A stretch of 64,000 nt of DNA from Candidatus Marinacidobacterium sp. GTDB lineage: Bacteria > Acidobacteriota > Vicinamibacteria > Marinacidobacterales > Marinacidobacteraceae. Shown here piece after piece: positions 41,747 through 57,732 of the stretch (position 1 is its first letter; each line of letters opens with the position of its first letter). The notes under the pieces are model-generated. The model was not told the DNA's origin. It worked only from the letters and a program-made list of their open reading frames with translations, and did no database searches. The position numbers were made by a program, and so were the translations under genes. The DNA lies in the NCBI GenBank assembly GCA_965220965.1, contig OZ244852.1, forward strand, positions 1,792,001 through 1,856,000, given 5' to 3'.

Positions 41747-41823
41747 CCGCCTCGCGGTTCCGGGACGGGGACCCGCATAGGATTCGGGGCCTCCACGCTG
41801 CCCTGTTTCCGGGAGGTCCGCCG

Positions 41824-43485
41824 GTGCGAGCCCTGCTCATGATGTCCTTGCTGCTTTCCCCCGCCGCGGCCGCGGCCGACTCCGGAGACCGTCCGGCGAA
41901 GGACACCGGGCTCGGCCGATCGCCGGTGCTGGCGCGGAACGGGATGATCGCGACGAGCCAGCCGCTGGCCTCGGCCGCCGGGCTCCAGGTTCTGATGGGA
42001 GGCGGCAACGCGGTGGACGCCGGGATCGCCGCCGCCGCGGTCCTGAACGTCGTCGAGCCGATGATGTGCGGCATCGGCGGCGACCTGTTCGCGCTCTACT
42101 GGGAGGCGGAGACCGAAACGCTCCACGCGCTGAACGCCACCGGGCGGGCGGGGGCGCGCGCGGACGCCGCGAAGCTCCGGGCCGAGGGCCGGACGCGGAT
42201 GCCTGGGGGCGGGCCGATCGCGGTGACGGTTCCGGGGGCGCTCGACGGCTGGGAGGAACTCGTCACCCGCTTCGGGACGCAGCCGCTCGCCGACCTGCTC
42301 CAGCCGGCGATCCGGCACGCGGAGGAGGGGTACCCGGTCTCCGAGATCATCTCGGTCCAGTGGAAGTCGGCCGAGGAGCGGCTGCGGCGCCACCCCGCGA
42401 CCGCCGCCGCCTGGCTGGTGGACGGCGAGCGGGCCCCGGAACACGGCGAGGTCTTCCGGGTCCCCGACCTGGCGACGACCCTCCGCAAGATCGCCGACCA
42501 GGGGACGGATGTCTTCTACCGGGGCGAGATCGCCGGCGCCATCCACGACTTCCTCGAGCAGGAGGGCGGGTTCGTGACCCGCGAGGACCTGGCGGCGCAC
42601 GAGTCGCTCTGGGTGGAACCGATCTCGACGACTTACCGGGGGGTGGAGGTCTTCCAGGTTCCGCCCAACTCGCAGGGGTTCGCCGCGCTCGAGATGCTGA
42701 ACATCCTCGAGGGGTTCGACGACCTCGCCGACCTGGGCCACAACTCGGCCGCCTACCTGCACCGCCTCATCGAGGCCAAGAAGCTGGCCTTCGCCGACCG
42801 CGACGCCCATCTGGGGGACCCGGAGCACATGCGGGTCCCGGTGGAGACGCTGATCTCGAAGGACTACGCGGCGGAGCGGCGGGCGCTGATCTCCCCGGAT
42901 CGGGCGGCGCGGGAGATTCCGCCGGGCATGACGGACGACGGCGACACGATCTACCTCACGGTCGTGGACAAGGACCGGAACGCGCTCTCGCTGATCTACT
43001 CCATCTTCGGATCCTTCGGGTCGGGGCTCACCGTCCCCGGGACCGGGATCGTGCTGCAGAACCGGGGAACCGGGTTCTCGCTGGAGGAAGGCCATCCCAA
43101 CGAACTCGCCCCGGGCAAGCTGGCGCTCCACACGAACATGCCGGGCATGGCGTTCCGCGACGGGCGCCCGTGGATCACCTACGGCGTCATGGGCGGGGAC
43201 ATGCAGCCGCAGGGACACACCCAGGTGCTGCTGAACCTCATCGACTTCGGCATGCATGTCCAGAAGGCGGGGGAAGTCGCGCGTTTCCGCCACGGCGCCT
43301 TGGGCGTCGGGATCGAGTCGGGCGTGGACGCCGATGTCCGCGCGGCGCTGACCCGCATGGGGCACACCGTGATGACGCGGTTCGGGGCCTACGGCGGCTA
43401 CCAGGCGATCCGGATCGACTGGGAGCAGGGCGTGCTTCTCGGCGGATCCGATGTCCGCAAGGACGGCGCGGCAATGGGCTACTGA
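41824..43485 (+). CDS. ggt: Gamma-glutamyltransferase
   Basis: GGNAVDA, GIGGD, GDT autoproteolysis Thr, LQNRG, GVMGG.MQPQG. Confidence 0.93.
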   Translation: MRALLMMSLLLSPAAAAADSGDRPAKDTGLGRSPVLARNGMIATSQPLASAAGLQVLMGGGNAVDAGIAAAAVLNVVEPMMCGIGGDLFALYWEAETETLHALNATGRAGARADAAKLRAEGRTRMPGGGPIAVTVPGALDGWEELVTRFGTQPLADLLQPAIRHAEEGYPVSEIISVQWKSAEERLRRHPATAAAWLVDGERAPEHGEVFRVPDLATTLRKIADQGTDVFYRGEIAGAIHDFLEQEGGFVTREDLAAHESLWVEPISTTYRGVEVFQVPPNSQGFAALEMLNILEGFDDLADLGHNSAAYLHRLIEAKKLAFADRDAHLGDPEHMRVPVETLISKDYAAERRALISPDRAAREIPPGMTDDGDTIYLTVVDKDRNALSLIYSIFGSFGSGLTVPGTGIVLQNRGTGFSLEEGHPNELAPGKLALHTNMPGMAFRDGRPWITYGVMGGDMQPQGHTQVLLNLIDFGMHVQKAGEVARFRHGALGVGIESGVDADVRAALTRMGHTVMTRFGAYGGYQAIRIDWEQGVLLGGSDVRKDGAAMGY

Positions 43486-43657
43486 GGCGCGGCGCCGGGT
43501 TCTCCGGGGGCCGCGCCGCGCGGAAACCCGGGCCGGCCCCGCCGCCGGGAGAAGGGTCTCCGGCGAGGGGGAAACGCCGTTTCCGGCCGCTAAGATCACG
43601 GCCGAGGGCGGGTCCCGGGAGTCAGGGACGGCTCCTCGCGTGAGCGCTTACTTCGTC

Positions 43658-45787
43658 ATGAAATCCCGGACCGCCGCGGCCTGGAGCGCCGCGGGTCTTC
43701 TCCTCCTGGCGGCGCCCGTTGTCGCGCAGCCCCCGAGCGAACCCGACGCCGCCGAGCCGGAAGCGAGCGAAGAGCAGGGCGATCCCGAGGAGGCCTCCGA
43801 GGAAGTCGGCGCCGGCGCCCTGCGGTTCGCCGAGACGGTGGTGGTCACGGCCTCCCGGTCGGATGCGCCGCTGCTGACGGCGCCGGCGGCGGTCTCGGTG
43901 CGCACCGGCGAAGAGCTGGCGTCGGAGGCGCCGCGGACGTTCGTGGACCTGTTCCAGGGAGTCCCGGGGATCCAGATCCAGGGCAACGCGCGGCGGATCA
44001 CCGAGGCCCCCAACATCCGGGGCTTCGCCGACCAGCAGGTCGTCGTCCGCCAGGACGGGGGGCGGCAGAACTTCCACGCGGCGCACGCCGGCCGATTCTT
44101 CGTGGATCCGGACCTGGTCCAGCGGGTGGAGGTCATGCGGGGAGCCAACTCGGCGCTCTTCGGCAGCGGCGCGCTCGGCGGCGTCGTGTCGGTGACGACC
44201 CGGAGCGCGCGCGACCTGCTCGAGCCGGGAGAGGACTTCGGCGGCCGCTACCGGGTGGGATTCCAGTCGAACGGGCGCGACTTCGGCCAGTCGTTCACCG
44301 CGTTCACCGCGAACGAGCCGCTGGAGGCGCTCGCCAGCTTCACCCTCGGCGGAACCTCGGCGCCGGTGCGCGACGGCAACGGAGACGCGATCCCCAACAC
44401 CGAGGACGAGATGCGGAACGGGCTCGTGAAGGTCGGGTGGACCCCCGGCGCCCGCACCCGGTTCGAGGCTTCCTGGCAGGGCTTCGGCAACCGGGCCGCC
44501 GAACCCACGAACGCGAACGCGCTGACCGGAAGTCTGGTGGACCGCGACACCTGGTGGGACGGACTCCGGGCGCGAATGGAAGTCCGCTCGCTGGATTCGG
44601 AGCTCGTCGACTTCGAGGCGCTGGCGTATCGCAACTCGGTGGAGGTGTCCGAGGAGTTGCGGATCAACCCCCGCCTCGACGAGACCCGCTTCGAGACCCT
44701 GGGCGTCGAGTTCACGAACACCGCCCGCTTCCATCCGCGCGACGGTCTGCGGCTGCGGGTGAGCGCCGGAGCGGAGGCCTTCCGCGACCGGCAGTCGGGA
44801 ACGCGGGACGGTCAGGACCGGCTCCAGTTCCCGGACGCGAACGCGTCCTACCTGGCCGCCTTCGTCCATGGAGAGGCCGACATCGGGGACCGGCTCCAGC
44901 TCACCGCCGGCCTGCGCCGGGACGCCTGGCGCCTGCGCGCCGGCCAGTTCCCGGAGCGCAGCGAAGGGCAGTTCTCGCCACGGGCGACGGTGGGCTACCG
45001 GCTGGGCGAGGCGGGCTTCGTGTGGGTCGGCGCCGCCCGCGGGTTCCGGGTTCCGAGCCTCACCGAGCTCTTCGCCGACGGCCTCCACTTCCAGATCCCG
45101 GTCGCGGCGTCGGTCGAAGTCCTGAACTGGTTCCGGCCGAACCCCGACCTCCCCGCCGAGCGGGGCCTGTCCTGGGAAGCCGGCTTCCGCGGCGGCCGGG
45201 GCGCGTGGACGCTCGAGACGACCTGCTTCCGGCAGACCGTCGGGAACTACGTGGACCAGCGCGTCCTGCTCTCGGACCCCTCCTTTCCGCTGCGGGTGGA
45301 TCCGGTCTCGGGGATCTCGGTGATCACCGGCTCGACGGTGAATGTTCCGCTGGAGGCCCGTCTGGACGGGTGCGAAGGCGTCGCCGGCTTCGAGCGGCGC
45401 CGGCTGCGGTTCCGGGTCGCGGGCTCCCTCCTGGAGACCGAAGACACCGCAACCGGAGTCTCGCTGGCCCGGGCGCCGGCCGACCGGCTGGATCTCTCGC
45501 TGAGCGCCCGGCTGCCCTCGCTCGACCTCGAGCTCGGGGGGCGCGCGATCCTCGCCGCGGCGCGCACCGGGGTCCCGGACCTGGTGGAAGAGGGCGCGGC
45601 CTATCGCGTCTTCGACCTCTTCCTTCGCTACACCCCGGAGGGCGGGCCGCTCGCCGGCGTGGACTGGACGGTGGCGCTCAACAACCTCACGGACGAGTAC
45701 TTCGCGGTGTTTCCGGCGGTCGTGCCCCAGCCGGGGCGCAGCCTGCGCCTCGCCGCCGCCTACCGGTTCGGTTTCTCCCGGAACTGA
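43658..45787 (+). CDS. TonB-dependent heme/hemoglobin-type receptor
   Basis: Signal, VVVTA TonB box, NIRG, RG.NSALFGSGALGG; FRVP..H..NPDL (FRAP/NPNL-like). Confidence 0.8.
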   Translation: MKSRTAAAWSAAGLLLLAAPVVAQPPSEPDAAEPEASEEQGDPEEASEEVGAGALRFAETVVVTASRSDAPLLTAPAAVSVRTGEELASEAPRTFVDLFQGVPGIQIQGNARRITEAPNIRGFADQQVVVRQDGGRQNFHAAHAGRFFVDPDLVQRVEVMRGANSALFGSGALGGVVSVTTRSARDLLEPGEDFGGRYRVGFQSNGRDFGQSFTAFTANEPLEALASFTLGGTSAPVRDGNGDAIPNTEDEMRNGLVKVGWTPGARTRFEASWQGFGNRAAEPTNANALTGSLVDRDTWWDGLRARMEVRSLDSELVDFEALAYRNSVEVSEELRINPRLDETRFETLGVEFTNTARFHPRDGLRLRVSAGAEAFRDRQSGTRDGQDRLQFPDANASYLAAFVHGEADIGDRLQLTAGLRRDAWRLRAGQFPERSEGQFSPRATVGYRLGEAGFVWVGAARGFRVPSLTELFADGLHFQIPVAASVEVLNWFRPNPDLPAERGLSWEAGFRGGRGAWTLETTCFRQTVGNYVDQRVLLSDPSFPLRVDPVSGISVITGSTVNVPLEARLDGCEGVAGFERRRLRFRVAGSLLETEDTATGVSLARAPADRLDLSLSARLPSLDLELGGRAILAAARTGVPDLVEEGAAYRVFDLFLRYTPEGGPLAGVDWTVALNNLTDEYFAVFPAVVPQPGRSLRLAAAYRFGFSRN

Positions 45788-46316: not shown

Positions 46317-48376
46317 TGGTCCGTCGCCCCGGCCGGGTCGCGCGTGAAGCGCGAGAACCAGTCCAGCATGTAGAGCTGGGTCCGGATGAAGTTCGAGGGC
46401 TGCGAGCTGGTGCCGTGGTACTCCTCGTGGAAGCGGACCAGCTCGGTGGGGACCCCGAGCGCCTTGAGCGCCTGGTAGTACTCCTCGGTCTGGCTCATCG
46501 GCGTTCGGAGATCCAGTTCGCCGGTCATGAGCAGCGTCGGGGTGGTGACGTCGCCCACCAGCATGAGCGGCGAGTGCTCCAGGTACTTCTCGGCGTTGTC
46601 CCACGGATAGCCGTGGTAGCGCATGAAGCCCCAGCGCGGGATGTCCGCGGTGCCGGCGAAGCTCATCCAGTTGACCACCGGACAGCGAACCGCGGCGGAG
46701 GCGAACCGGTCCGTCTGGCCGATGACCCATGAGGAGAGGACGCCGCCGCCGCTGCAGCCGGTGACCGCCATCCGGGACTCGTCCACGATGCCCTGGCCAA
46801 TGACCGCATCCACCCCGGCCATCAGGTCGTCGTAGTCCACGCTCGGGTAACCGTTGTCGATGGCGTTCCCGAACCCGGTTCCGTAACCGGTGCTGCCCCT
46901 CGGGTTCGTGTAGAGGAGCAGGTAGCCGTTCGCCGCGAAGTTCTGGAAGGCGTTGTTGAAGCCCACGTTGTACATCGCGTGGGGGCCGCCGTGGATGTGG
47001 AGCACGAGCGGATACTGCCGCCCGGGCTCGAAGTCCGGCGGCTTGATGAGCCACCCCTGCACCCGGGCGCCTCCGGTCGAGTCGTACCAGATCTCCTCGA
47101 CCTCGCCCAGCTCGATCCCGGCGAGGACATCGTCGTTCACCGCGGTGAGCCGGGTCACCTCGGAGGGCCGGTCCAGCGGGAAGACGACGACATCGGCGGG
47201 CTCGTGGAACGATGTGCGGACGCCGGCGGCGATCCCGGTCTCCGAGATCGTGCTGACGCTGAGCATGTGCGTCCCTTCGGTCACCGGGGAGGTCCCGCCG
47301 GCGAGACTCGCGGCGTGGAGGTTGCGGGACCCGCGGTCGTCGGCGGTGAAGTAGATCCGGTCGCTGTCGGGCGCCCACCAGGGGTTCGCGGCGTCCCGGT
47401 CCAGCTCGGCCGAGAGCGAGCGCATCCCGGCGCCGTCGACGCCGATGACCCAGAGATCGCTCACCTTGTAGGTCTGCTCGGTCCACCCGAAACCGCCGAA
47501 GGCGATGTGCTCTCCGTCGGGCGAGACGACCGGACCGGACCACGGGCCCCGCTCCTGGGTGATCTGGCGGATCTCGCCCGTTCCGAGGGAGACATGGTGG
47601 ATGTGGGATTCGCGGTAGCGAAGGTCGGCGTCCTCGACGCGGGACCCGTCAAAGACGAGACCGCTCCCGTCCGGCATCCAGTCGATCCCGGCGCCGTAGT
47701 CGAGCCCGACCGCGCCTCGCGAGCCCACGTGCCATTCCCCTTCGGTGAGCTGGCGGGCGGCGCCGCCGGCCGCCGGAACCACGAAGAGGTGGCGGAAGCC
47801 CTCCTCGAGGAACCCGACGCGGTCCTGGCGGAAATGCATCCGCCGCACGATCCGCGGCGCCTTCGTCCAGGTGGCCCCCTCCGGCGGGGAGGGCATCGAG
47901 GGGAGGTCCCAGGTCTCGGGAGCGGGAACGATGCGAGTGAACGCGATCATCGTGGAGTCCGGAGACCAGTGGAGATCGCGGGGCGGCGGGCCGTCGCGCG
48001 TCACCTGGGAGACGGCGCCCTCGGCGTCCATCCACCGGACGAAGATCTGCGGGCCGCCGGCGTCCCCGGCCCGGAGGAACGCGACGCGGGTTCCGTCGGG
48101 AGACCAGACCGGCGAGGAGCCCCTGGCCAGGAAGCGGTTGCGGCTCCCGTCGGCGTTCACGATCCACAGCTCGGAGGCCCAGCGGTCCCGCTGGCGGTCG
48201 ACGTGGCTGCGGGTGTAGATCACCTGCGCGCCATCCGGAGAGATCGCCGGAGCGCTCACCCGCTCCCAGTCGAGGATGTGGGAAGCGCGGAGATGGTTCG
48301 GGCCGGCGGTCTCCTGAGCCGCCGCCGGGGCGGCGAACAGGCCCGCCGCGAGGAGGAGAGGAAGGAAGTTGCGCAT
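46313..48376 (-). CDS. S9 family peptidase (acylaminoacyl/dipeptidyl peptidase)
   Basis: Signal; PD40-like propeller; IHGGP, NPRGS.GYG, GCSGGG, D and H triad residues. Confidence 0.93.
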   Translation of the reverse strand: MRNFLPLLLAAGLFAAPAAAQETAGPNHLRASHILDWERVSAPAISPDGAQVIYTRSHVDRQRDRWASELWIVNADGSRNRFLARGSSPVWSPDGTRVAFLRAGDAGGPQIFVRWMDAEGAVSQVTRDGPPPRDLHWSPDSTMIAFTRIVPAPETWDLPSMPSPPEGATWTKAPRIVRRMHFRQDRVGFLEEGFRHLFVVPAAGGAARQLTEGEWHVGSRGAVGLDYGAGIDWMPDGSGLVFDGSRVEDADLRYRESHIHHVSLGTGEIRQITQERGPWSGPVVSPDGEHIAFGGFGWTEQTYKVSDLWVIGVDGAGMRSLSAELDRDAANPWWAPDSDRIYFTADDRGSRNLHAASLAGGTSPVTEGTHMLSVSTISETGIAAGVRTSFHEPADVVVFPLDRPSEVTRLTAVNDDVLAGIELGEVEEIWYDSTGGARVQGWLIKPPDFEPGRQYPLVLHIHGGPHAMYNVGFNNAFQNFAANGYLLLYTNPRGSTGYGTGFGNAIDNGYPSVDYDDLMAGVDAVIGQGIVDESRMAVTGCSGGGVLSSWVIGQTDRFASAAVRCPVVNWMSFAGTADIPRWGFMRYHGYPWDNAEKYLEHSPLMLVGDVTTPTLLMTGELDLRTPMSQTEEYYQALKALGVPTELVRFHEEYHGTSSQPSNFIRTQLYMLDWFSRFTRDPAGATDQ

Positions 48377-48456
48377 CGGGAGTCTCCAGCGAAAGCAAAC
48401 GGCCAGCGAAAGCGGGACGAATGGACCGGCGATTGTAGGAGGAGCGCCGCCGGCGT

Positions 48457-49557
48457 TCAGTGGGCCCGGCCGGCGGGCGCGAGCCGCCAGAGCGCGGGGG
48501 AGTCGGTCAGTCGCGGGTTGCGGCAGGCGAGGTCGTGCGGGGTGCGGCCCTGGCGGTCGCGCGCCGAGGGGCGCGCCCCGGCATCGAGAAGCGCTTCCAC
48601 GACATCGGCGGCCCCGTCCGCGGCGGCGACGTGAAGCGGCGTCGAGCCGTCGTCGGCGAGAACGTTGGGATCGGCTCCGGCGTCGAGCAGCACCTGAAGC
48701 GGCCCCCGCGCCTCCGCGGCCACCGCCACCGCGTGGAGCGGCGCGCCGCCGGCGGTGGTGCGGGCCTCGAGGTCGGCGCCCGCCTCGACCAGTTGGCGGG
48801 CCACCGCCTCCGCGTCGCCGTCAGCGCCGATGAGGTGGAGCGGGCGGACGCCGCGGGCGGAGGCGCGATCCGGGTCCGCGCCGCCCGCGAGCAGGGCGGC
48901 GACCGAGGGCGCGTCGCCGTTGCGGACGGCGGCGTGCAGGGGAACGAGCCCCGCCTCGTCGGGACGGTCCGGGTCCGCCCCGGCGGCCATCAGCAGGGGC
49001 AGGCAGTCGGCGCAGCCGCGCGCCGCGGCCAGATGGAGGGCGGTGACGCCGTCGGCGGCGGCGGCGGAGATGTCCGCGCCGGCGGCGAGGAGCAGGGTGG
49101 CCACCCGGCGTCGGCCGGCCCGCTCCGGAGGAGGATCCCTCGGCGAAGGCCGGTGGCGGGCGAAGACCATGTGGAGCGCGGTCGCCCCGTCGGGAAGGCT
49201 GGCGCGGGGATCGGCGCCGGCCTCGAGCAGGAGCGCGACCGACTCGGGGTCGGCGAGGGGGAATGCGGCCAGAAACAGCGGGCGAACCGGGTCCCCGGGA
49301 GGCCCGTCCGGGGCGGCGCCGGCGCGCAGGAGGAGGCCGACCGTAGAGGACCGCGCGTTCGCGATCGCCACGAGCAGCGGGGTGCGCGCCTTCGCGTCCC
49401 GGTAGTTCGGATCGGCCCCGGCGCGCAGCGCCATCGCGACGCGGGAGAGCGGCGCTCCAACCCGGGCCGCCGCCAGCAGCCACTCGTTGAGGCTTCGGCG
49501 AAGGACGGCGACCCGAAGAAGCGGACGAAGCGGAGAGGCGGGTCGACGACGTGGCAT
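48457..49557 (-). CDS. Ankyrin repeat protein
   Basis: Repeated G.TPLH.A...LL..GAD units (about 9). Confidence 0.9.
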   Translation of the reverse strand: MPRRRPASPLRPLLRVAVLRRSLNEWLLAAARVGAPLSRVAMALRAGADPNYRDAKARTPLLVAIANARSSTVGLLLRAGAAPDGPPGDPVRPLFLAAFPLADPESVALLLEAGADPRASLPDGATALHMVFARHRPSPRDPPPERAGRRRVATLLLAAGADISAAAADGVTALHLAAARGCADCLPLLMAAGADPDRPDEAGLVPLHAAVRNGDAPSVAALLAGGADPDRASARGVRPLHLIGADGDAEAVARQLVEAGADLEARTTAGGAPLHAVAVAAEARGPLQVLLDAGADPNVLADDGSTPLHVAAADGAADVVEALLDAGARPSARDRQGRTPHDLACRNPRLTDSPALWRLAPAGRAH

Positions 49558-49713
49558 GGCGAGTGGGATCCCGGGGAGGAGCGGGCCCTCCGGGGGAGCG
49601 GCGTCGGCGCCCGGAACCGGGCGCCGGGAGGGCGCGAAACCGCCGGGAGGAGGCCCGGCGGCGGTCCCGGCTGCTCAGGCCGGGAGGCGGCCCCGTCTTC
49701 GGGGCGGGTGGAC

Positions 49714-50064
49714 TCAGAGGAAAGCGGCGAGCATTTCCGCGTGGAAGCCTACGAGAAGCGCGTCACCCACGCGCATCGTGGGAGCGCGGAGCTTCCCCGA
49801 GCGGCCCAGCATCCGGTCGGCGAGGTCGGCGGGCGGTCCGTCGGCCAGCCCGATGCGCTCGAACTTCCGGCCACGGGCGACCGCCACCTCGCGGACGCCC
49901 TCCAGCAGCGCCGGGATGTCCTCGCGGAGGACGGGGTCGCGGTTGGCGTTCCTGATCTCTTCGGCCTCGAGGCCCCGTTGCGCAAGAAACTCCTGCGCGC
50001 GCTTGCAGCCGGTTCAACCGGGGCGGTGGTAGCGCCAGGCGACGACGGCGGAACCGGGGCTCAT
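49714..50064 (-). CDS. ArsC-related thioredoxin-fold selenoprotein (UxxC)
   Basis: ATG 50064; MSPGSAVVAWRYHRPG-UGA(50016-50014)-TGCKRAQEFL...GRSGKLRAPTMRVGDALLVGFH; SECIS-like hairpin follows. Confidence 0.85.
49980..49998 (-). promoter_or_regulatory. Putative bacterial SECIS element
   Basis: GCGCAGGA-GTT-TCTTGCGC hairpin starting 15 nt after UGA; G at the start of the apical loop. Confidence 0.65.
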
Positions 50065-50573
50065 CAGTCTTCGATGCGGTCGTAGATCGCGCGGGTCACC
50101 CGCGTGATCCGCCCTTCCTCGTCGAGCCGGACGTAGTCGTTGTCGATCCGGTTCCCGTCGTCGGAGAGGGTGTTGATGATGACCTGGTAGACGACCCCGT
50201 CACGCCGGTTCAGGATGCGGGTCGACCGCTCGGTGACGATCTCGACCGCGGTGTCGGCGTTCTCCTGGCCGGCGACCGGACGGAACACCCCGTCGAACAG
50301 CGTCTCGTAGCTCCACTCCGAGGTCTCGTTGTCGGCGTTCGTGGTCGCCACCGTGATGCTCATGCCGCCGTCGCCCCACGGGGCGTAGGTCATGATGTTC
50401 TGGTAGGGCGGCGGGTTGTCCGAGCGGATCTTCCAGACCCCGAAACGGGGGTTCGCGTCCTGGGCTTCGGCTTCCGGGCCGCCGCCGCAGGCGGACGCGA
50501 CGAAGGCCGCGAGCGCGAGAGCGACGAGAGCGAGGGGCGGTCGGCGAAGCGACTGGCGGGCCGGTATGCGCAT
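50064..50573 (-). CDS. Lipoprotein, lipocalin-like beta-rich domain
   Basis: ASAC lipobox; FGVWK, DG and YDR motifs; SD AAGGAG. Confidence 0.75.
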   Translation of the reverse strand: MRIPARQSLRRPPLALVALALAAFVASACGGGPEAEAQDANPRFGVWKIRSDNPPPYQNIMTYAPWGDGGMSITVATTNADNETSEWSYETLFDGVFRPVAGQENADTAVEIVTERSTRILNRRDGVVYQVIINTLSDDGNRIDNDYVRLDEEGRITRVTRAIYDRIED

Positions 50574-50624
50574 GGGTCGGACTCCTTGAAGGGCGCGCCA
50601 TTGTGGCACAGGGGCGCTGTCTCC

Positions 50625-52229
50625 CTATGGGGAAAACCCGGGACGGCGGAGCGGCCTTCCGGCGAGGGCGCCGGTGGCCGCCCCGTCACGCAGCGCGAAC
50701 TCCCCGTTGACCAGCACATGGACCATGCCCTCGGCGAACTGATGCGGTTCGTCGTAGGTCGCCAGATCCCGCACCCGGTCCGGGTCGAAGATCACGAGGT
50801 CGGCGTGATGCCCCTCGCGCACGAGCCCCCGGTCCCCGAGGCCGAGGAATTCGGCGGCCAGCCCGCTGAAGCTGCGGATCGCGAACTCCATGGAGATGCG
50901 CTCCTCGTCGAGGACGTAGTCCCGCATCTTCTTCGCGAACGCCCCGTAGACCCTCGGATGCCCGACCGGCGTCCCGGGGCGGATGTCGCGTCCGTCGGTG
51001 CAGGTCATCATCCAGTCCTGCTCCGCGAGAAAGGCGGTGTTCCACGGGTCGTAGAGCCCGATGTTCATGACCGACGCGTTGCCGTCCCGAAGGATCGAGC
51101 GCACCGCCTCGGGGACGGGCAGCCCCATGGCTTCCGCCGCTTCGGCGAGCGTCCGGCCATTCAGTTCCGGGCGGGGATCGGAGAAGCGGATCCTTTCGGC
51201 CCCTCCCCGGATCGCGAGCATTTCGGCGGTCGCCTCATCGAGGACCCGCGCGGTGTCCGGGTCGTCGAAGCGATCCAGCATCGCCTCCCGGCCGCCGGCC
51301 GAGGCCCAGCGGGGAACGGCGTAGGCGCGCAGGCTGGACTGGGTGGCGGTGTAGACGTGCTGGGCGCCGAACACCGGGACGCCGCGGGCCCTCGCCGCCT
51401 CGATGAGCGCCGCTCCCTCCGGGGCCCGCCCGTAGTTGTGGGCGCCCTGCGCGTTGAAGTGGCTGAAGATCACCTTGACCCCCGACTCCTCGCCGATCCG
51501 GATGGCCTCCTCGATGGAGGCGAGGTACCCCACCCCCTGGTAGGACGCCCCCAGATCCCGGTCGTGGGTGTCGTAGATCCCGGGCTCGTATTCGGCGGCG
51601 ACCCTCGCCAGCTCGATGACCTCTTCGGTCGTGGCGTAGGTCCCCGGGACGTAGAACAGGCCGCTGGAGAGGCCGAAGGCGCCTTCCTCGAGCCCCTGAC
51701 GGACGAGGCCGCGCATCCGCTCGAGTTCCCCGGCGTTCGGCGCCCGGTCTTCCTCCCCGAGAACCAGGCGGCGCACCGCCCCGTGGCCCACCCAGGTGAA
51801 CGCGTTGACGCCCATGCCTCGGGACTCCCAGCCGGCGAGGGTGGCGGCCACCTCGGGCGAGCCGCCCCCATCGGCGCCGAGCGCCACGGTCGTGATCCCC
51901 TGGTGCAGGAACGGGAGCGCCTCCTTGCCCCAGTCGGTCCCCACCTGGGAGTGGGAGTGCATGTCGATGAAACCGGGCGCCGCCAGCAGTCCGGAGACAT
52001 CGAGCGACTCGCTGGCGACGACGCCCTCGGCGGCCGCGTCCCCGAGGAAGACGATCCGGTCGCCGCGCACGCCGATGTCCGCGGTCACCGGCGCCTCACC
52101 CGCTCCTTCGTGGACGGTGGCGCCCAGGAAGAGGAGGTCCACCTCCTCGCCGGAGCAACCGGCGATGACGCCGGTCAGGGCGGCGAATGCGAGATCCCGG
52201 AGGATCCGGGGTGTGTTCCGGAAGACCAT
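50625..52229 (-). CDS. N-acyl-D-amino-acid deacylase family, lipoprotein
   Basis: IAGC lipobox; APGFIDMHSH, QGITT, GLFYVPG, HPR.YG.F, ADLVIFD. Confidence 0.9.
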   Translation of the reverse strand: MVFRNTPRILRDLAFAALTGVIAGCSGEEVDLLFLGATVHEGAGEAPVTADIGVRGDRIVFLGDAAAEGVVASESLDVSGLLAAPGFIDMHSHSQVGTDWGKEALPFLHQGITTVALGADGGGSPEVAATLAGWESRGMGVNAFTWVGHGAVRRLVLGEEDRAPNAGELERMRGLVRQGLEEGAFGLSSGLFYVPGTYATTEEVIELARVAAEYEPGIYDTHDRDLGASYQGVGYLASIEEAIRIGEESGVKVIFSHFNAQGAHNYGRAPEGAALIEAARARGVPVFGAQHVYTATQSSLRAYAVPRWASAGGREAMLDRFDDPDTARVLDEATAEMLAIRGGAERIRFSDPRPELNGRTLAEAAEAMGLPVPEAVRSILRDGNASVMNIGLYDPWNTAFLAEQDWMMTCTDGRDIRPGTPVGHPRVYGAFAKKMRDYVLDEERISMEFAIRSFSGLAAEFLGLGDRGLVREGHHADLVIFDPDRVRDLATYDEPHQFAEGMVHVLVNGEFALRDGAATGALAGRPLRRPGFSP

Positions 52230-52295
52230 GGCGCGCCTCGTTCGCTCGTGCGTTGGGGGAGAATCCCCGCCGACAGATAGATGGAGGGGAGACCC

Positions 52296-53531
52296 ATGAG
52301 AGTACGCATCCGGACGCGGCGCCTCGCCTTGGCCGCGAGCCTGCTGGGCGCCGTCGCGCCGCTGGCGGGAGCCCAGGACTGGCCCCAATGGCGCGGACCG
52401 AACCGCGACGGCGCGGCGACCGGTTTCGAGGCGCCCGCCGAGTGGCCCGCCGAACTGCGACTGCAGTGGTCCGTCGTGGTGGGGACCGGCTACGCCACCC
52501 CGCTCGTCGTGGGCGAGACGCTCTTCGTGTTCGCGCGGCAGGGGGAGGAGGAGGTTCTCCTCGCGCTCGACCCGGCCTCCGCCGAGGTCCGGTGGCGCTC
52601 GCCGTATCCCGCCCCCTTCGACATGAGTCCGGCGACCGCCCGGCACGGGCCGGGCCCCAAGTCCACGCCGGCGTTCGCTGACGGCCGCATCTTCGTCCAT
52701 GGGATGACGGGCTCGGTGAGCGCCTTCGACGCGGCCTCCGGGGAGCGGCTGTGGCATGTCCCGGGAACGACGCCGATCCCGCTTTACCACACCGCGATGT
52801 CACCGCTCGTGGTCGACGGGATCGTGGTGGTCCATGTCGGCGGCCACGACCAGGGGGCGCTCACCGCGTTCGATGTCCGATCCGGCGAGGTCGTGTGGCG
52901 CTGGGACGGCGACGGGCCCGCCTACGGCTCCCCGATGGGCTTCCGCCTCGATGGCGCCGACCAGATCCTGACCTTCACCCAGGAGCGCTTCGTCGGGGTG
53001 TCGCCCGACAGCGGGACCCTGCTGTGGAGCCGACCGTTCACGACCCCGTCTGACACGACCTCACAGACGCCGCTTCTTCATGGAGACCTCGTCATCCAGG
53101 CGGGCCGGGAGAACGGCGTGACCGCGTTCCGCGCCGCGCGCCAGGGAAGCGACTGGGTGACCGAGGAGGTCTGGAGCACCGACGAGGCCTCGTTCCACAT
53201 GGCGAACCCGGTCATCTGGAACGGGGTGCTCTTCGGGCTCTCCCACCTGAGGCGGGGTCAGTACGTCGGCGTCGGGCTGGACACCGGAGAGGTCGTGTGG
53301 CGGAGCGACCCCCGCCAGGCGAACAACGCCGCCATGGCGGTCGCCGGCGACTTCGTGCTGTCGCTCGAGGAGGACGCCGAGCTCGTCGTCTTCGAGGCGG
53401 CCCCGGACGGGCTCACCGAGCGCCGGCGCTACGAAGTCGCGGAGAGCGCCACCTGGGCCCAGCCGGCGTGGTCGGGAGAACGCATCTTCATCAAGGATGT
53501 CGACCGCGTGTCGCTGTGGACGCTCCGCTGA
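52296..53531 (+). CDS. PQQ-binding-like beta-propeller repeat protein
   Basis: Signal then DWPQWRGP.RDG; repeated A.D..SG...W blades. Confidence 0.88.
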   Translation: MRVRIRTRRLALAASLLGAVAPLAGAQDWPQWRGPNRDGAATGFEAPAEWPAELRLQWSVVVGTGYATPLVVGETLFVFARQGEEEVLLALDPASAEVRWRSPYPAPFDMSPATARHGPGPKSTPAFADGRIFVHGMTGSVSAFDAASGERLWHVPGTTPIPLYHTAMSPLVVDGIVVVHVGGHDQGALTAFDVRSGEVVWRWDGDGPAYGSPMGFRLDGADQILTFTQERFVGVSPDSGTLLWSRPFTTPSDTTSQTPLLHGDLVIQAGRENGVTAFRAARQGSDWVTEEVWSTDEASFHMANPVIWNGVLFGLSHLRRGQYVGVGLDTGEVVWRSDPRQANNAAMAVAGDFVLSLEEDAELVVFEAAPDGLTERRRYEVAESATWAQPAWSGERIFIKDVDRVSLWTLR

Positions 53532-53547
53532 GGGACCGCGCGGACGA

Positions 53548-54918
53548 TCAGCGGCCGCCGCGCCGGGCGGCGAGCTCCTTCTCCCGGCGGCGGGGGACGC
53601 CGCCGAGGGCGGCGCGGGCGCGGCGAAGGCGCATGCGCGTCATCGCGCCCCCCAGCAGGACCATCGAGCCGAACAGCGGCGTGGAGGCGGCCGAGCCGGA
53701 GAGCGCCAGGTAGAGCGGCCGGGTCAGCGCGCGGAGCTTGACGTCGAGGGCGTCGGCCAGCGCGGCGAGCGCGGCATGGACGGCCTCTTCGGTGAACTCG
53801 TCGAGATCCTCGAGGGCCCATTCGGCGAGCAGAAGCCATTCCGCGATCCTCGGGCGGTCCTCTTCCGCGCCGAACGCCTCCGCCCCGGGAGCGACGTCGT
53901 CAACGAAGAAGTGGCCCGCGAGGCGCCCGAAGTCGGCGAGCGTGCGCATCCGCGGCTGCGCCATCGCCGCGGCCGCCTCCAGCGTCCGGTCCGCGTAGCG
54001 CCAGTCGCGGAGCCGCGCCGCAACGCCGGCCGGGTCGTGGTCCTCGCGCAGGTACCGGCCGTTCAGCCAGGCGAGCTTGTCGGTGTCGAAGACGGCGCCG
54101 GCGAGCGAGATCGCTTCGAGGTCGAAGCGCGCCACGAACTCGTCGAGCGGGAACTTCTCCTCGCCCTCGGCGCGGGTCCAGACCAGGATGCCGAGGAAGT
54201 TCAGCAGCGCCTCCGGCAGGAAGCCGGCGTCCCGGTAGAAGTCGATCGAGACGGGGTTCTTGCGCTTGCTCAGTTTCGAGCGGTTCCGGTCGTTGTTCCG
54301 CAGGAGCGGAACGTGCCAGAAGGCCGGAGGCTCCCAGCCGAGCGCCTCGTAAAGAAGGAGGTGCTTCGGGAGCGACGCGATCCATTCCTCCCCCCGGATC
54401 ACGTCGGAGATCTCCATGTGGTGGTCGTCCACCACGTTCGCCAGGTGGTAGGTGGGGAACCCGTCCGACTTGAGCAGGACCGGGTCGTCCACCGACTCCC
54501 AGTCCTTCGAGAGCCCGGGATGCAGCCGGTCGGGGAGCTCGACCCGTCCGGAATCGGGCGTCTTCAGCCGGATCGCGAACGCTCCGCCGGGCGCCCCGGC
54601 GTCGTCGCGGTAGGCATGCCCTTCCCGAAGCAGCCGTTCCGCCACCTCGCGGTAGAGGTCGAGGCGCTCGCTCTGCCGGTAGGGGGCGAAGCGGCCGCCC
54701 ACGTCGGGGCCCTCGTCCCAGGCGAGGCCCAGCCAGCGGAGCGCGCGGAGGATCGCCGCCTCGGAGTCGCGCCGGGAGCGGGCCTGGTCGGTGTCCTCGA
54801 TGCGGAGCGCGAAGGCGCCCCCGCGCTGACGCGCGAAGGCGTAGTTGAGCAGCGCCTGGTAGGCCGTCCCCACGTGGGGATCCCCCGTCGGGGAGGGCGC
54901 GATCCGGGTGCGGGTCAC
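53548..54918 (-). CDS. gltX: Glutamate--tRNA ligase
   Basis: RIAPSPTG, HVGT, LRIEDTD, PTYH, IRGEEW, KLSKR; anticodon-binding domain present. Confidence 0.93.
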   Translation of the reverse strand: MTRTRIAPSPTGDPHVGTAYQALLNYAFARQRGGAFALRIEDTDQARSRRDSEAAILRALRWLGLAWDEGPDVGGRFAPYRQSERLDLYREVAERLLREGHAYRDDAGAPGGAFAIRLKTPDSGRVELPDRLHPGLSKDWESVDDPVLLKSDGFPTYHLANVVDDHHMEISDVIRGEEWIASLPKHLLLYEALGWEPPAFWHVPLLRNNDRNRSKLSKRKNPVSIDFYRDAGFLPEALLNFLGILVWTRAEGEEKFPLDEFVARFDLEAISLAGAVFDTDKLAWLNGRYLREDHDPAGVAARLRDWRYADRTLEAAAAMAQPRMRTLADFGRLAGHFFVDDVAPGAEAFGAEEDRPRIAEWLLLAEWALEDLDEFTEEAVHAALAALADALDVKLRALTRPLYLALSGSAASTPLFGSMVLLGGAMTRMRLRRARAALGGVPRRREKELAARRGGR

Positions 54919-55005
54919 GCGGCGTTCCCGGGGGGCCGACCGGAAGTCCGGAGCGGATTCACCGGCCGCGCCGGCGGGGCCCCCGGCGTGCGGAGACTCC
55001 GCCCC

Positions 55006-56829
55006 CTACACGGTGGCGTGGCGATGGAAGGCGACCCACTCGACGACCAGCAGCAGGAGGGCGAAGAGCGCCAGCAGCGGCCAGAGGGCGGAAACCGGGG
55101 CGGACGCCGGCGGCAGCGGAGCGGGAGCTTCCCCCGCCCAGGCCGAGCGGTTCAGGTCGGAGGCCTGGCGGTCCAGGAGACTGGCCGCCACCACGACTTC
55201 GCGCCCGCCGCCGGCGACGTAGTAGAGCGAGGGCTCGGCCGCCTGGAACGAGAGCTCGCGGCCGAGCCGCCGGAACGGCACGTCCCGGCCCTCCCCGTCG
55301 AAGACCACCCCCTCTCCGAGGGCCACCCGGACGGGCCCCAGTCCGACGCGCCGCACCTCCACGTCGGTGAGCCAGCTCAGGGCGCGGGACAGGAACACCG
55401 GAAAGTCCGGCTGGAGCGCCAGATTCGAGCGCCCCAGCGGGAACGCGAAGGCGGCGGCGCGGGCGGGGTCGTCGCGCACCGCGAACAGCCCCAGGCGGGA
55501 GTCGCCGAGCAGCACATCCCACCCCGGACCCGAGGGATCGAAGGCCTCGACGTCGCGCGCCAGCGCATCCTCGAAGTTGATCCCGGCGAGAAGCGGGTGA
55601 TCCTCGCGCCCGCTACGCACCGGAAGGGTGACCGCCGCCTCCATCTCGCCGGCCACTCGCGCCGGCAGCCAGTCCGCGGCTCCGGGGCCGGCGAACAGGA
55701 TCGGGCGGTCCGGGGCGACTTCCGGCGGGGCGCCTTCCATCACGACCAGGTCGAACGCGCCGGGGTCGAAATCGGCGAACGGATCCGATCCGGGCGGGCT
55801 CCGGGTCAGGCTGACCCGGGGATCCAGCCGGAGCGCGGCCTCCCAGTAGGGACTCTCGTCGCCGGCCAGCAGGATCCGGAGCCGGTTCCGGGAGGGCACG
55901 TAGGCGTGGGCCACATCGTCGGCGGCGAGGCCGTCGGCCCCGGACGCCGCGATCACCGCCCGCACCGGACCGGCGACGAACCCGGTGAGCGGGACGGTCT
56001 CGCCGTGCGGTTCGCCCGGCGCCACGCGGAAACTGCGGCGGACCGACGCTTCACCGGCGCCGTCGATCTGGAGCGCCACGGCCGCGCTCTCGTCCGAACC
56101 CACCGGATGGAACACAACCTCGATGAAGGCCTCGAAGCGGCCCGGGTCGGTCGGCAGCGGGCGAACGTCGAACGCGGTGATGCCGACGTTCTCGACCGGC
56201 TCGAAGACCGAGATCCGCCGCGCCCCGGCGGGGACTTCGGACACCCGGACGCCGTCTCCGATCACGATCACCTCCGCCTGCCCCGCCTCGCCCGGCTGCT
56301 CTCCGACCAGGTCCGAGAGGTCGGGCAGCGCGTGGGTCGGCCCGAAGTCGGGAGCGAGGTCGTTCACCGCCTCGTGAGCCGCGCGCCGGTCGGTGAAGGA
56401 CCGGCCGCCGCGCCGCCCGGCGGTGTCCAGGACGAGAAAGCGGGTCGCCGGGGCGGCGGCGTCGATGATCCGGTGCGCGTGGTCGGCCACCCGGTCCCAG
56501 CGCGCGCCGCCGTCCGCGACCTCCGCGGCCAGGCTGGGCGAGGTGTCGAGCACGAGCACGACCCGCCCTCCGGTTCCGGCGTCGCCGCGGACCGGCTCGA
56601 GGAGCGCCAGCGCGACCGCGAGCGAGGCGCACAGCGCGATGAGCAGCGAAATGAGCCAGCGCCAGAAGTCCTCCCGGCGCCGCCGCTCATCGAGGACCTT
56701 CCGCCAGATCAGGTTCGAGGGCACGCGCACCGGCTGCGGCTCGGGCCGGACCCAGTAGAGGATGAAGACGACCGCGGCGGTGACCGCCAGTCCTATCAGG
56801 ACGGTCAGCGGCGTGGCGGCGAAACCCAA
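55006..56829 (-). CDS. BatA-like N-terminal + vWA domain membrane protein
   Basis: Double-TM N-terminus, LDTSPSL MIDAS-like motif, C-terminal LL..EW TM; TTG start after GGAGG. Confidence 0.85.
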   Translation of the reverse strand: MGFAATPLTVLIGLAVTAAVVFILYWVRPEPQPVRVPSNLIWRKVLDERRRREDFWRWLISLLIALCASLAVALALLEPVRGDAGTGGRVVLVLDTSPSLAAEVADGGARWDRVADHAHRIIDAAAPATRFLVLDTAGRRGGRSFTDRRAAHEAVNDLAPDFGPTHALPDLSDLVGEQPGEAGQAEVIVIGDGVRVSEVPAGARRISVFEPVENVGITAFDVRPLPTDPGRFEAFIEVVFHPVGSDESAAVALQIDGAGEASVRRSFRVAPGEPHGETVPLTGFVAGPVRAVIAASGADGLAADDVAHAYVPSRNRLRILLAGDESPYWEAALRLDPRVSLTRSPPGSDPFADFDPGAFDLVVMEGAPPEVAPDRPILFAGPGAADWLPARVAGEMEAAVTLPVRSGREDHPLLAGINFEDALARDVEAFDPSGPGWDVLLGDSRLGLFAVRDDPARAAAFAFPLGRSNLALQPDFPVFLSRALSWLTDVEVRRVGLGPVRVALGEGVVFDGEGRDVPFRRLGRELSFQAAEPSLYYVAGGGREVVVAASLLDRQASDLNRSAWAGEAPAPLPPASAPVSALWPLLALFALLLLVVEWVAFHRHATV

Positions 56830-56844
56830 GGGAACCTCCGACTG

Positions 56845-57732
56845 CTAGCGGATGAAGCGATCCTGCTTGAAGATGTCGAGGATCGCCTGCTCGAACGGGA
56901 CGCCGGTGTTCGTCCGGGCGAACCCGAACCCGTAGCGGGAGCAGTAGTCCATGACTTCCTGACGATGGGAGTCGAGCGCCTCGCGGTAGCGGACGAGGAG
57001 CCGGGGGGTCACCCGCACCCGGCGCTCGGAGCCGTCCTCCGCGTCGGTCAGCAGCGCCTCGTCCGGGAGCTGGGGGTCCTCCTCCTGCGGCGTGAGGATC
57101 TGGACGATGACCATGTCGTGCTTCTGGTAACGGCACGCGTCGAAGGCGCCGAGCAGGTCCTCGGAGTCCATGAGGTCGGAGAGAACCACCGCCAGCCCGC
57201 GCTTGCGGCGGGAACCGAAGAAGGCGCGGAAGCTCTGGGCGAGCGATGTGCCGCCGCCGATCTCCCCGGCGTCGAGGAAGCGAAACGCCCGGTAGATCTG
57301 GTTCCGGCCCCGCTTGGGGGGCATCCAGCCGCCGATCCGCGAGGCGTACCAGGCGATGGAGATCAGGTCGTGGTTCATGAGCCCGATGTAGGACAGCGCT
57401 CCCGCCATCTTGCGGGCGTAGTCGAACTTGGGCGGCGCCCCGAAGGCCATCGAATCGCTCTGGTCCACGAACAGGTAGACCGGCAGGTCGGCTTCCTCGT
57501 CGAAGATCCGCAGCACGAGGCGGTCGAGCCGTAGGAACGCCTTCCAGTCCACATCCCGCGTGTCGTCGCCGTCCACGTAGGGGCGGTAGTCGGCGAGCTC
57601 GATGCCGGTCCCGCGCTTCCGGGCGCGGTGCTCGCCGCGATGCCGGCTGGGCAGCATCCGGGTCGCCATGAGCTTGAGGTACTCGAGACGCTCCATGAAC
57701 TCGGCGTCGAAGAGAGTCTTCGCTTCGCTCAT
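56845..57732 (-). CDS. DUF58 domain protein
   Basis: G.E.ADYRPY..GDD.R.VDW, DQSDSM, SD. Confidence 0.92.
   Translation of the reverse strand: MSEAKTLFDAEFMERLEYLKLMATRMLPSRHRGEHRARKRGTGIELADYRPYVDGDDTRDVDWKAFLRLDRLVLRIFDEEADLPVYLFVDQSDSMAFGAPPKFDYARKMAGALSYIGLMNHDLISIAWYASRIGGWMPPKRGRNQIYRAFRFLDAGEIGGGTSLAQSFRAFFGSRRKRGLAVVLSDLMDSEDLLGAFDACRYQKHDMVIVQILTPQEEDPQLPDEALLTDAEDGSERRVRVTPRLLVRYREALDSHRQEVMDYCSRYGFGFARTNTGVPFEQAILDIFKQDRFIR

Follow-up and report, generated by a model that had tools for sequence, protein, structure and literature searches.

Does a reading frame interrupted by one TGA encode a selenoprotein, or is the TGA the stop codon that gene finders take it to be? The question is raised by a locus on the minus strand of a 64,000-nucleotide (nt) stretch of DNA from Candidatus Marinacidobacterium sp. 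(assembly GCA_965220965.1, contig OZ244852.1, positions 1,792,001-1,856,000 of the forward strand), called the window below; coordinates are those of the window unless a genome contig is named. A first-pass annotation, made from the letters of the window, had proposed a hidden gene at 49714..50064 for an ArsC-like protein with selenocysteine (Sec, U) at codon 17, followed by a selenocysteine insertion sequence (SECIS). The best explanation, which we hold to be very probably right as a whole, is that this is a real Sec-decoding gene, that its product has an ArsC/Spx-type fold, and that the product would act as a selenol/thiol oxidoreductase. The locus is a genuine selenoprotein gene of an already catalogued family; it is a correct call of a known kind and no discovery.

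The reading frame and its start codon

The minus-strand frame 50064..49714 opens with ATG AGC CCC and translates into 116 residues with a single internal TGA. The TGA (50016..50014) is found within Y-H-R-P-G-U-T-G-C-K-R-A, and the frame continues to a C-terminus of LLVGFHAEMLAAFL, directly followed by the stop codon. The elements of the gene are:

49714..50064, minus strand: selenoprotein gene, 116 codons and a TGA stop (49714..49716), member of NCBIfam family NF041106
50014..50016, minus strand: Sec codon UGA (codon 17), which opens the U-T-G-C (UxxC) redox motif
50005..50007, minus strand: codon for Cys20, second half of the UxxC motif
50062..50066, minus strand: TGATG junction, stop of a lipoprotein gene and ATG of the selenoprotein gene, with 1 base in common

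The A of the start codon (50064..50062) belongs also to the TGA stop (50066..50064) of the upstream open reading frame (ORF) at 50064..50609. This is the sole ATG, GTG or TTG in frame between the preceding stop and the TGA at codon 17. The length of the frame, its one interruption and its overlap with the upstream stop had all been read correctly in the first-pass annotation, as had the failure of the plain ORF list to include the gene: the list represents this frame just by a 57-residue fragment with a GTG start (49714..49887). The G+C content around the locus is 68-80%.

Reads with TGC or TGT at 50014-50016 would have pointed to an assembly error, as the first-pass annotation had foreseen. 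A Logan contig from run X1 is identical to the window from 49500 to 50700, with the TGA unchanged and a word depth of about 102x. Given that X1 is probably the sample from which the genome was assembled, and hence not independent, this match is a weak check. The argument against an error at the TGA is chiefly one of sequence conservation among relatives.

Conservation of the TGA

The first set of relatives comprised 61 genomes that share genus, family, order or class with the genome of the window, itself included. The family model NF041106 finds a match in 44 of the 61 and a match above cut-off in 42. Each of the above-cut-off matches contains an in-frame TGA (49/49), with 48 containing one and 1 containing two. 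In tblastn alignments the TGA stands in the same column in 21/21 loci, in the contexts H-R-P-G-(TGA)-T-x-C or R-N-G-(TGA)-T-S-C, at identities down to 34%. A wider scan, with one genome per species, took the best 80 of 159 relatives, and the TGA is again in the same column in 80/80 loci. These 80 loci come from metagenome-assembled genomes (MAGs) labelled Vicinamibacteria / Acidobacteriota / Candidatus Marinacidobacterium, Gemmatimonadota / Longimicrobiales, Latescibacterota, Planctomycetota and Myxococcota. The sets of 21 and 80 loci overlap, in that some genomes were reached by both routes.

The segment upstream of the TGA is translated, to judge from the position of the start codon and from the residues that are conserved there. 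A start codon is present 11-16 codons before the TGA in 84/86 rows, and the other two rows, which are identical, have starts at 20 or 22 codons. The residues W-R-Y-H-R-P-G, which directly precede the TGA, are kept: in 40 sequences W10, Y12 and R14 show no variation, and H13, P15 and G16 show almost none. TGA is at the same time a normal stop codon in this lineage, as the lipoprotein gene ends with TGA, TAG or TAA interchangeably among relatives.

The protein collection gave 32 matches, of which 11 sequences were read. Five of the 11 are shortened and start at a Met just past the TGA site. Cys is found at the Sec position in P0007 and P0010, so that homologues with either Sec or Cys do align across the UGA, as had been expected. 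Trp is found there in P0008, P0011 and P0020; these entries are probably the result of TGA translated under another table. P0019 has Val at the position, in an altered motif.

The number of copies differs between genomes. One genome of the same genus, G002 (single contig, 94% complete), which is the nearest of the complete relatives, is without an NF041106 match, and 26 of the 27 other genomes of the family have one; G002 may have lost the gene recently. In some relatives of the same order, with genomes of 8-10 Mb, the family is multi-copy. G045 has 4 above-cut-off matches, three of them with identical scores and far apart, and the 5 matches of G049 include one with two in-frame TGA codons and two fragments. 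These copies suggest duplication or carriage on a repeated element.

A covarying SECIS-type hairpin

The UGA is followed by a hairpin of the kind that directs Sec insertion in bacteria:

49980..49998, minus strand: SECIS hairpin, 8-bp stem, GUU apical loop (49988..49990), 23 nt from UGA to loop

The hairpin (GCGCAGGA-GUU-UCUUGCGC, read from 49998 to 49980) has its first base 15 nt past the UGA, forms 8 pairs with a folding energy of -12 kcal/mol, and has G first in a loop of 3 nt, just as the first-pass annotation had drawn it. The bSECIS model, in the form of the bSECISearch constraints quoted in the available part of PMC13188914, allows a loop of 3-9 nt, an upper stem of 4-16 bp, 16-37 nt between UGA and loop, and a minimum free energy of -7.5 kcal/mol or lower. 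It also requires a G within the first two loop positions, as a rule with G or U after it (PMC13188914). The window hairpin is within all the limits quoted there, with a loop of 3 nt that starts G-U, a stem of 8 bp, a distance of 23 nt and an energy of -12 kcal/mol; it shows no departure from this version of the bacterial consensus, and the general bacterial geometry claimed for it was well judged.

Covariation was assessed in a gap-free alignment of 81 stretches of 54 nt from the TGA on, with 78 distinct sequences, in which columns 19-26 are set against columns 30-37. Pairing is possible in 86.9% of cells over the 78 sequences, as compared to 30-63% once the 3' partner is slid out of register by 1-3 columns. 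Double-sided changes are found in 29 cells, as compared to 5.2 in shuffles, and 0/500 shuffles reach 29. Pair 21-35 is GC in 60 sequences, UA in 11, AU in 4 and CG in 1; pair 23-33 is AU in 66 and GC in 11; and pair 24-32 is GU in 40 and AU in 38. Column 35 is a second codon position (for Ala, Glu or Val) and column 21 a wobble position, and in the same way column 23 is a second codon position (for Gln or Arg) and column 33 a wobble position. Therefore, amino-acid changes encoded by one arm are matched by silent changes on the other arm. A 7-bp core of the stem is kept across the 78 distinct sequences, but the outermost pair of the window hairpin, 19-37, is found in just 11/78. Two further counts, namely how many pairs show a double change at all (3) and how many pair types there are, did not exceed those of shuffles.

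A second stem solution is used in 13 loci from sister families of the same order. It consists of GCGUCCA paired with UGGACGC, which gives 7 bp around a 6-nt AGUUCA loop at the same distance from the UGA, with the register shifted by one column. It is 98.6% paired, as compared to 24-31% when slid, with little variation. All sequences, whichever of the two stems they use, have GUU in the loop. RNAalifold applied to the first 21 loci together found no common hairpin, because the two lineages pair in registers one column apart, and splitting the lineages resolved the failure.

Selenocysteine machinery

If Sec is inserted, the first-pass annotation had argued, the organism should have selA, selB, selC and selD. 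The genome of the window (3.25 Mb in 2 contigs, 94% complete) has all four above cut-offs:

C1:2615843: selA, 492.1 bits, above cut-off
C1:364576: selB, 325.8 bits, above cut-off, model positions 1-580 of 581
C1:2608922: selD, 251.6 bits, above cut-off
C1:2736894-2736987: tRNA-Sec, 74 bits, gathering score 47

ARAGORN also reports a tRNA-SeC with anticodon tca in this genome.

A custom scan of the whole genome for read-through TGA codons, which used third-position G+C and nearby Cys residues, was rejected. It gave 1679 candidates, 226 of them with a nearby Cys; these looked mostly like out-of-frame noise, and the known gene was missing from the filtered printout.

A catalogued family

For family-model scoring, Cys was substituted for Sec in the read-through product. 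NF041106, "ArsC family (seleno)protein", matches at 103.4 bits with a cut-off of 85, and residues 8-111 align with model positions 1-106 of 107. Searching the genome in all six frames finds a single copy, at 95.9 bits and with 1 in-frame TGA. The window protein has the UxxC motif, the single Sec codon and the length class of NF041106, passes the curated cut-off along the full model, and differs in no family-defining feature. To call the selenoprotein hidden was therefore an overstatement, as the family is curated and is present in selenoprotein catalogues. What this analysis adds to NF041106 is the covariation of the SECIS, the occurrence of the family in five phyla, where all genome loci examined have the TGA, and, in the lineage of the window, a coupling to a lipoprotein gene.

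ArsC-like selenoproteins were reported in 2006, according to the available part of PMC1794560. The 2008 study of the GOS metagenomes, in the portion available, separates 'arsenate reductase 1' (UxxS) from 'arsenate reductase 2' (cd03032, UxxC) (PMC2398784), and the accessible text of a 2022 review contains the entry 'arsenate reductase-like protein, COG1393, UxxC' (PMC9312934). As described in those excerpts, the 'arsenate reductase 2' (cd03032) or 'ArsC-like' proteins of Zhang and Gladyshev are ArsC/Spx-type UxxC domains computed from marine metagenomes and deltaproteobacteria (PMC2398784, PMC1794560). From these descriptions, the window family is probably the UxxC group of these authors. The other ArsC group described there has UxxS (PMC2398784), which the window protein does not have.

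An ArsC/Spx-type fold

A profile built from 40 family sequences and searched against the PDB matches Spx chains over the full length, with E values of 8e-9 to 2e-7. The alignment places Sec on Cys10 of the Spx C-T-S-C motif and L-R-A-P on the L-R-R-P of Spx. The next matches are the putative arsenate reductase 2m46 (E 7e-7), the ArsC-related protein 3gkx (5e-4), YffB (0.04) and glutaredoxins.

The AlphaFold model of the product has a mean predicted local distance difference test (pLDDT) score of 92.7 and a predicted template modelling (pTM) score of 0.86. It consists of strand 8-13, helix 18-29, strand 34-39, helix 47-53, a beta-hairpin at 59-72 and helix 81-85, followed in the C-terminal part by strands 96-99 and 102-105 and helix 109-115. 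Sec17 is exposed at the start of helix 1, and R93-A94-P95 is just ahead of strand 96-99, so placed that the R-A-P loop is beside Sec. We take these to be the positions of the nucleophilic Cys and of the cis-Pro loop of thioredoxin-fold oxidoreductases. The second of the two is part of a conserved motif:

49780..49806, minus strand: G-R-S-G-K-L-R-A-P motif, residues 87-95, with R-A-P aligned with R-R-P of Spx

L86, G87, R88, S89, G90, L92, R93, A94 and P95 are invariant in the 40 sequences. Some acidobacterial members of the family (L043, L048 and L057) are about 13 residues longer, owing to an insertion after the beta-hairpin and ahead of the helix that leads to G-R-S-G; the window protein is without it. 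The window protein is also without a signal peptide.

A Foldseek search of the PDB places Spx first (6ghb, 3l78, 3gfk and others), with template modelling (TM) scores of 0.51-0.54, and next the ArsC-related proteins and YffB (2kok, 0.48; 3gkx, 0.56; 1rw1, 0.54). These top matches have probabilities of 0.99-1.00 and TM scores of 0.48-0.56. Spx from Bacillus subtilis and relatives (1z3e, 3gfk, 6ghb, 3l78) thus provides the best solved relatives, with the thioredoxin-type core, the C-x-x-C position and the L-R-x-P loop in alignment. The window protein differs from Spx in having Sec in place of Cys10, in its predicted beta-hairpin as the middle subdomain, in the phyla of its hosts, and in failing the Spx family models.

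Glutaredoxins, NrdH redoxins and Uxx-star proteins are alike in their N-terminal beta-alpha-beta unit with its redox motif. The likeness is limited to the first half, whereas the C-terminal G-R-S-G-K-L-R-A-P of the window protein is of ArsC/Spx type. Pfam Glutaredoxin (PF00462) matches at 23.9 bits, with 22.9 required, but covers only residues 12-58 (model positions 4-48 of 60). The NCBIfam models for glutaredoxin and Uxx-star score far under their cut-offs, and glutaredoxin and NrdH are found at Foldseek ranks 11-44. On profile and predicted structure, the protein is a member of the ArsC/Spx superfamily, with a U-x-x-C centre in a thioredoxin-type fold. Profile and fold also bear out the earlier placement of UxxC at the CxxC position, and of the later R-x-P motif as that of ArsC/Spx folds.

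Proposed mechanism

Translation would start at the ATG that overlaps the stop codon of the lipoprotein gene. The stem-loop, with its GUU loop 23 nt past the UGA, would recruit SelB and Sec-tRNA(Sec) at codon 17, such that selenocysteine is inserted. The product would be a cytoplasmic protein of 116 residues with UxxC at the start of helix 1, and Sec17 would be the attacking nucleophile. The pair would cycle between selenol/thiol and a 17-20 selenenylsulfide, in the manner of a thiol-disulfide type oxidoreductase. In the lineage of the window, the gene would be co-transcribed and translationally coupled with the gene for a calycin-like lipoprotein. The insertion of Sec at codon 17, as first proposed, is supported by the conservation of the TGA, the presence of the Sec machinery and the constraints on the SECIS, and selenol/thiol oxidoreductase is the most likely function, by analogy with CxxC/UxxC proteins of thioredoxin fold.

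Several points weigh against this explanation. The case for Sec insertion is wholly genomic and computational, and the oxidoreductase activity would follow from analogy. Searches of the 94%-complete genome for two selenoprotein families that are common elsewhere found neither formate dehydrogenase alpha (TIGR01553) nor Uxx-star (NF041212), and hence no second selenoprotein of these families, which does not show that one is absent. The hairpin by itself is unremarkable in DNA of 72-75% G+C: a stretch of 61 nt has a z score of -0.04, with 80/200 shuffles folding as well, and a stretch of 27 nt has a z score of -1.75, with 15/200 shuffles folding as well. An Rfam scan of 49600..50200 at E <= 10 gave three chance-level matches and no SECIS family. 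The significance of the hairpin comes from the comparative data: every related locus examined keeps both the column of the TGA and the position of the hairpin.

The superfamily assignment meets similar resistance. Pfam ArsC (PF03960) aligns over the whole model with residues 12-115 but scores 14.9 bits (E 0.033), under its gathering score of 24, and the Spx/MgsR models are far under their cut-offs, with 24.6 against 75.05 for TIGR01617 and 21.8 against 123 for NF002459. The link to the superfamily thus rests on the profile and fold comparisons. In the middle of the model there is a beta-hairpin where Spx and ArsC carry helices, and this difference holds the TM scores near 0.5.

Other explanations

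An alternative that survives best, and is still unlikely, is a Spx-like redox-switched regulator that binds RNA polymerase and uses the Sec-Cys pair as a sensor. Spx chains are indeed the closest solved relatives by profile and by fold, from end to end and with CxxC in register. The Spx models nonetheless fall short by the wide margins given above, the window protein is shorter than Spx, and Sec is typical of catalytic nucleophiles. In Spx the middle subdomain contacts the alpha subunit of RNA polymerase, and it is just this subdomain that is predicted to be a beta-hairpin instead of helices in the window protein.

It is very unlikely that the selenoprotein acts as a true arsenate reductase, of the glutaredoxin-coupled ArsC-like kind, with Sec attacking arsenate. 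The name of the family and the label 'arsenate reductase-like', as it occurs in the parts of the literature available, speak for this function, and the Y-H-x-P-x-C start resembles that of ArsC of plasmid R773. However, the arsC equivalog model gives no match at E <= 0.1, a level at which 14 NCBIfam families appear, and the 40-sequence profile finds no classical ArsC chain in the PDB at E <= 1. Foldseek places putative or annotated arsenate reductases at ranks 13, 17 and 21 (E 0.02-0.06, TM 0.44-0.54), after Spx, such that Spx is closer by sequence profile and by fold alike. A resolving Cys three residues after Sec (UxxC) follows the pattern of Spx and thioredoxin, and no ars genes are found among the immediate neighbours or among the sampled representatives of neighbours in other phyla.

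It is highly improbable that the UGA is read as Trp, Cys or Gly, be it by near-cognate or suppressor decoding or by a genome-wide reassignment of TGA. The Trp at the position in P0008, P0011 and P0020 would fit such decoding, but would most simply be another table's translation of TGA. TGA terminates both the lipoprotein gene, where relatives have TAG or TAA in its place, and the selenoprotein gene itself, so that TGA has not been reassigned. The position is moreover that of the redox-active Cys of the superfamily, with Cys forms in existence (P0007 and P0010), and a SECIS-type hairpin that covaries and a genome with selABCD are as expected for Sec rather than for another residue.

Hardly credible is a TGA that is a real stop, be it in a broken gene or at the end of a 16-codon leader, with translation resumed in a separate short ORF from the internal GTG (49887), and without Sec: the 57-residue fragment of the plain ORF list, the many database entries of relatives that begin at a Met just past the TGA and the non-significance of the hairpin by itself would agree with it, but 101 loci from five phyla have kept the TGA together with the seven residues that precede it, a pseudogene would not hold one stop at one column at 34-60% identity, the start codon is kept 11-16 codons upstream in nearly all rows, the Sec machinery in the genome is complete, and the shortened product would lose strand 1 and the active-site U.

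Genomic context

The selenoprotein gene is flanked by genes that are all on the minus strand:

50625..52790, minus strand: amidohydrolase-family ORF, Pfam Amidohydro_3 77.9 bits, residues 264-697
50064..50609, minus strand: lipoprotein ORF, start GTG at 50609; the database form has 169 residues from the ATG at 50573
48457..49557, minus strand: ankyrin-repeat gene, Pfam Ank_2 121.8 bits and Ank 112.5 bits
46313..48376, minus strand: S9 prolyl-oligopeptidase-family peptidase, Pfam Peptidase_S9 149.3 bits

In the direction of transcription, the amidohydrolase is followed after 16 nt by the lipoprotein gene, which overlaps the selenoprotein gene by 1 nt; 156 nt past the end of the selenoprotein gene comes the ankyrin gene, and then the S9 peptidase. 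The true start of the amidohydrolase is probably downstream of the first GTG of its ORF. In NCBIfam it matches a generic amidohydrolase family only, and under cut-off, so that the D-aminoacylase named in the first-pass annotation is not established beyond a generic Amidohydro_3 or amidohydrolase-family protein. The ankyrin gene, in contrast, was named correctly, with both Ank_2 and Ank in Pfam. As a Legionella Dot/Icm ankyrin effector it was rejected, given scores of at most 87 bits against cut-offs of 500-1400, which reflect generic repeat similarity.

Of 100 related loci, 28 have a neighbour matching the lipoprotein gene, 23 have one matching the amidohydrolase, 19 the S9 peptidase and 5 the ankyrin gene. 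The S9 peptidase, with 78-84% identity in 18 of its 19 loci, is a conserved downstream neighbour in the lineage. With its presence in 5/100 related loci, the ankyrin gene is an insertion that varies between relatives, placed between the genes for the selenoprotein and the S9 peptidase. The context is not the unusual one that it had seemed, as the order of amidohydrolase, lipoprotein, Sec gene and S9 peptidase recurs in relatives.

In the window, as in 27/28 other rows that have the lipoprotein gene, the stop codon of this gene is -4 to +18 nt from a candidate selenoprotein start, and GGAGG is often found within the last lipoprotein codons. The closely coupled cases are all from the acidobacterial lineage. 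The exception (L083:690-1088) is a MAG labelled Longimicrobiales (Gemmatimonadota), in which a lipoprotein homologue with 74% identity is 1.9 kb upstream of the Sec gene; this could be due to transfer or to mis-binning. Every other non-acidobacterial locus in this search is without a lipoprotein match in its flanks, which reached up to 3 kb upstream. Outside the lineage, the largest shared clusters of neighbours are one of 7 ORFs from 6 loci and one of 6 ORFs from 6 loci, out of 80, represented by a beta-lactamase-family protein and SurE, and a GNAT protein represents a cluster from 3 loci. No conserved context was therefore found beyond the lineage of the window in these 80 loci, with a crude greedy ORF picker that also takes antisense shadow ORFs. 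Scanned for promoters and terminators, 48000..53200 yielded a single terminator-like site and nothing like a promoter, which is no excess over shuffles, and the operon boundaries are inferred from gene spacing.

The lipoprotein has a signal peptide that ends A-S-A-C, followed by a predicted beta-barrel of 10 strands (model pLDDT 84). Its best folds in the PDB are UnaG/CRABP fatty-acid-binding proteins, nitrobindin and lipocalins, with target-normalised TM of about 0.6, which supports at the level of fold the earlier description as lipocalin-like. It has no Pfam family. Its homologues number at least 500, with about 60-85% identity and 153-170 residues, are all unnamed or 'hypothetical', and come from Acidobacteriota and Gemmatimonadota. 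With its predicted calycin-type fold, the lipoprotein belongs to a large and strongly conserved but uncharacterised family, which might repay separate study. The coupling of lipoprotein and selenoprotein genes is real and lineage-specific, but is probably not mechanistic: given that the lipoprotein is exported and the selenoprotein lacks a signal peptide, it is better read as an operon habit of the lineage than as the sign of a complex.

Elsewhere in the window, three long ORFs at 53497-57534 (plus strand), 41647-43599 (minus strand) and 43622-45088 (minus strand), of 1345, 650 and 488 residues, have no Pfam match at E <= 0.001. Some of them may be shadow ORFs in such G+C-rich DNA.

Implications

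For annotation, gene finders that treat TGA as a stop produce a 57-residue fragment of this gene or nothing, and the database entries of many relatives are similarly shortened. Such a gene can be recovered when family models, the Sec machinery and the covariation of the hairpin are used together, and this locus shows cleanly how. The additions to the family are modest, namely the presence of TGA rather than Cys in all 101 loci, the compensatory changes in the SECIS, the two stem solutions and the coupling to a lipoprotein gene.

There is also an outside chance that the family is neither an arsenate reductase nor a generic redoxin. It would then be a Spx-like, Sec-based redox sensor or adaptor with its own beta-hairpin subdomain, which maybe shares a pathway with the lipoprotein, the amidohydrolase and the S9 peptidase. 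If so, the protein might keep a ligand or peptide-processing route reduced, and the retention of TGA across the family would reflect a chemistry beyond that of Cys.

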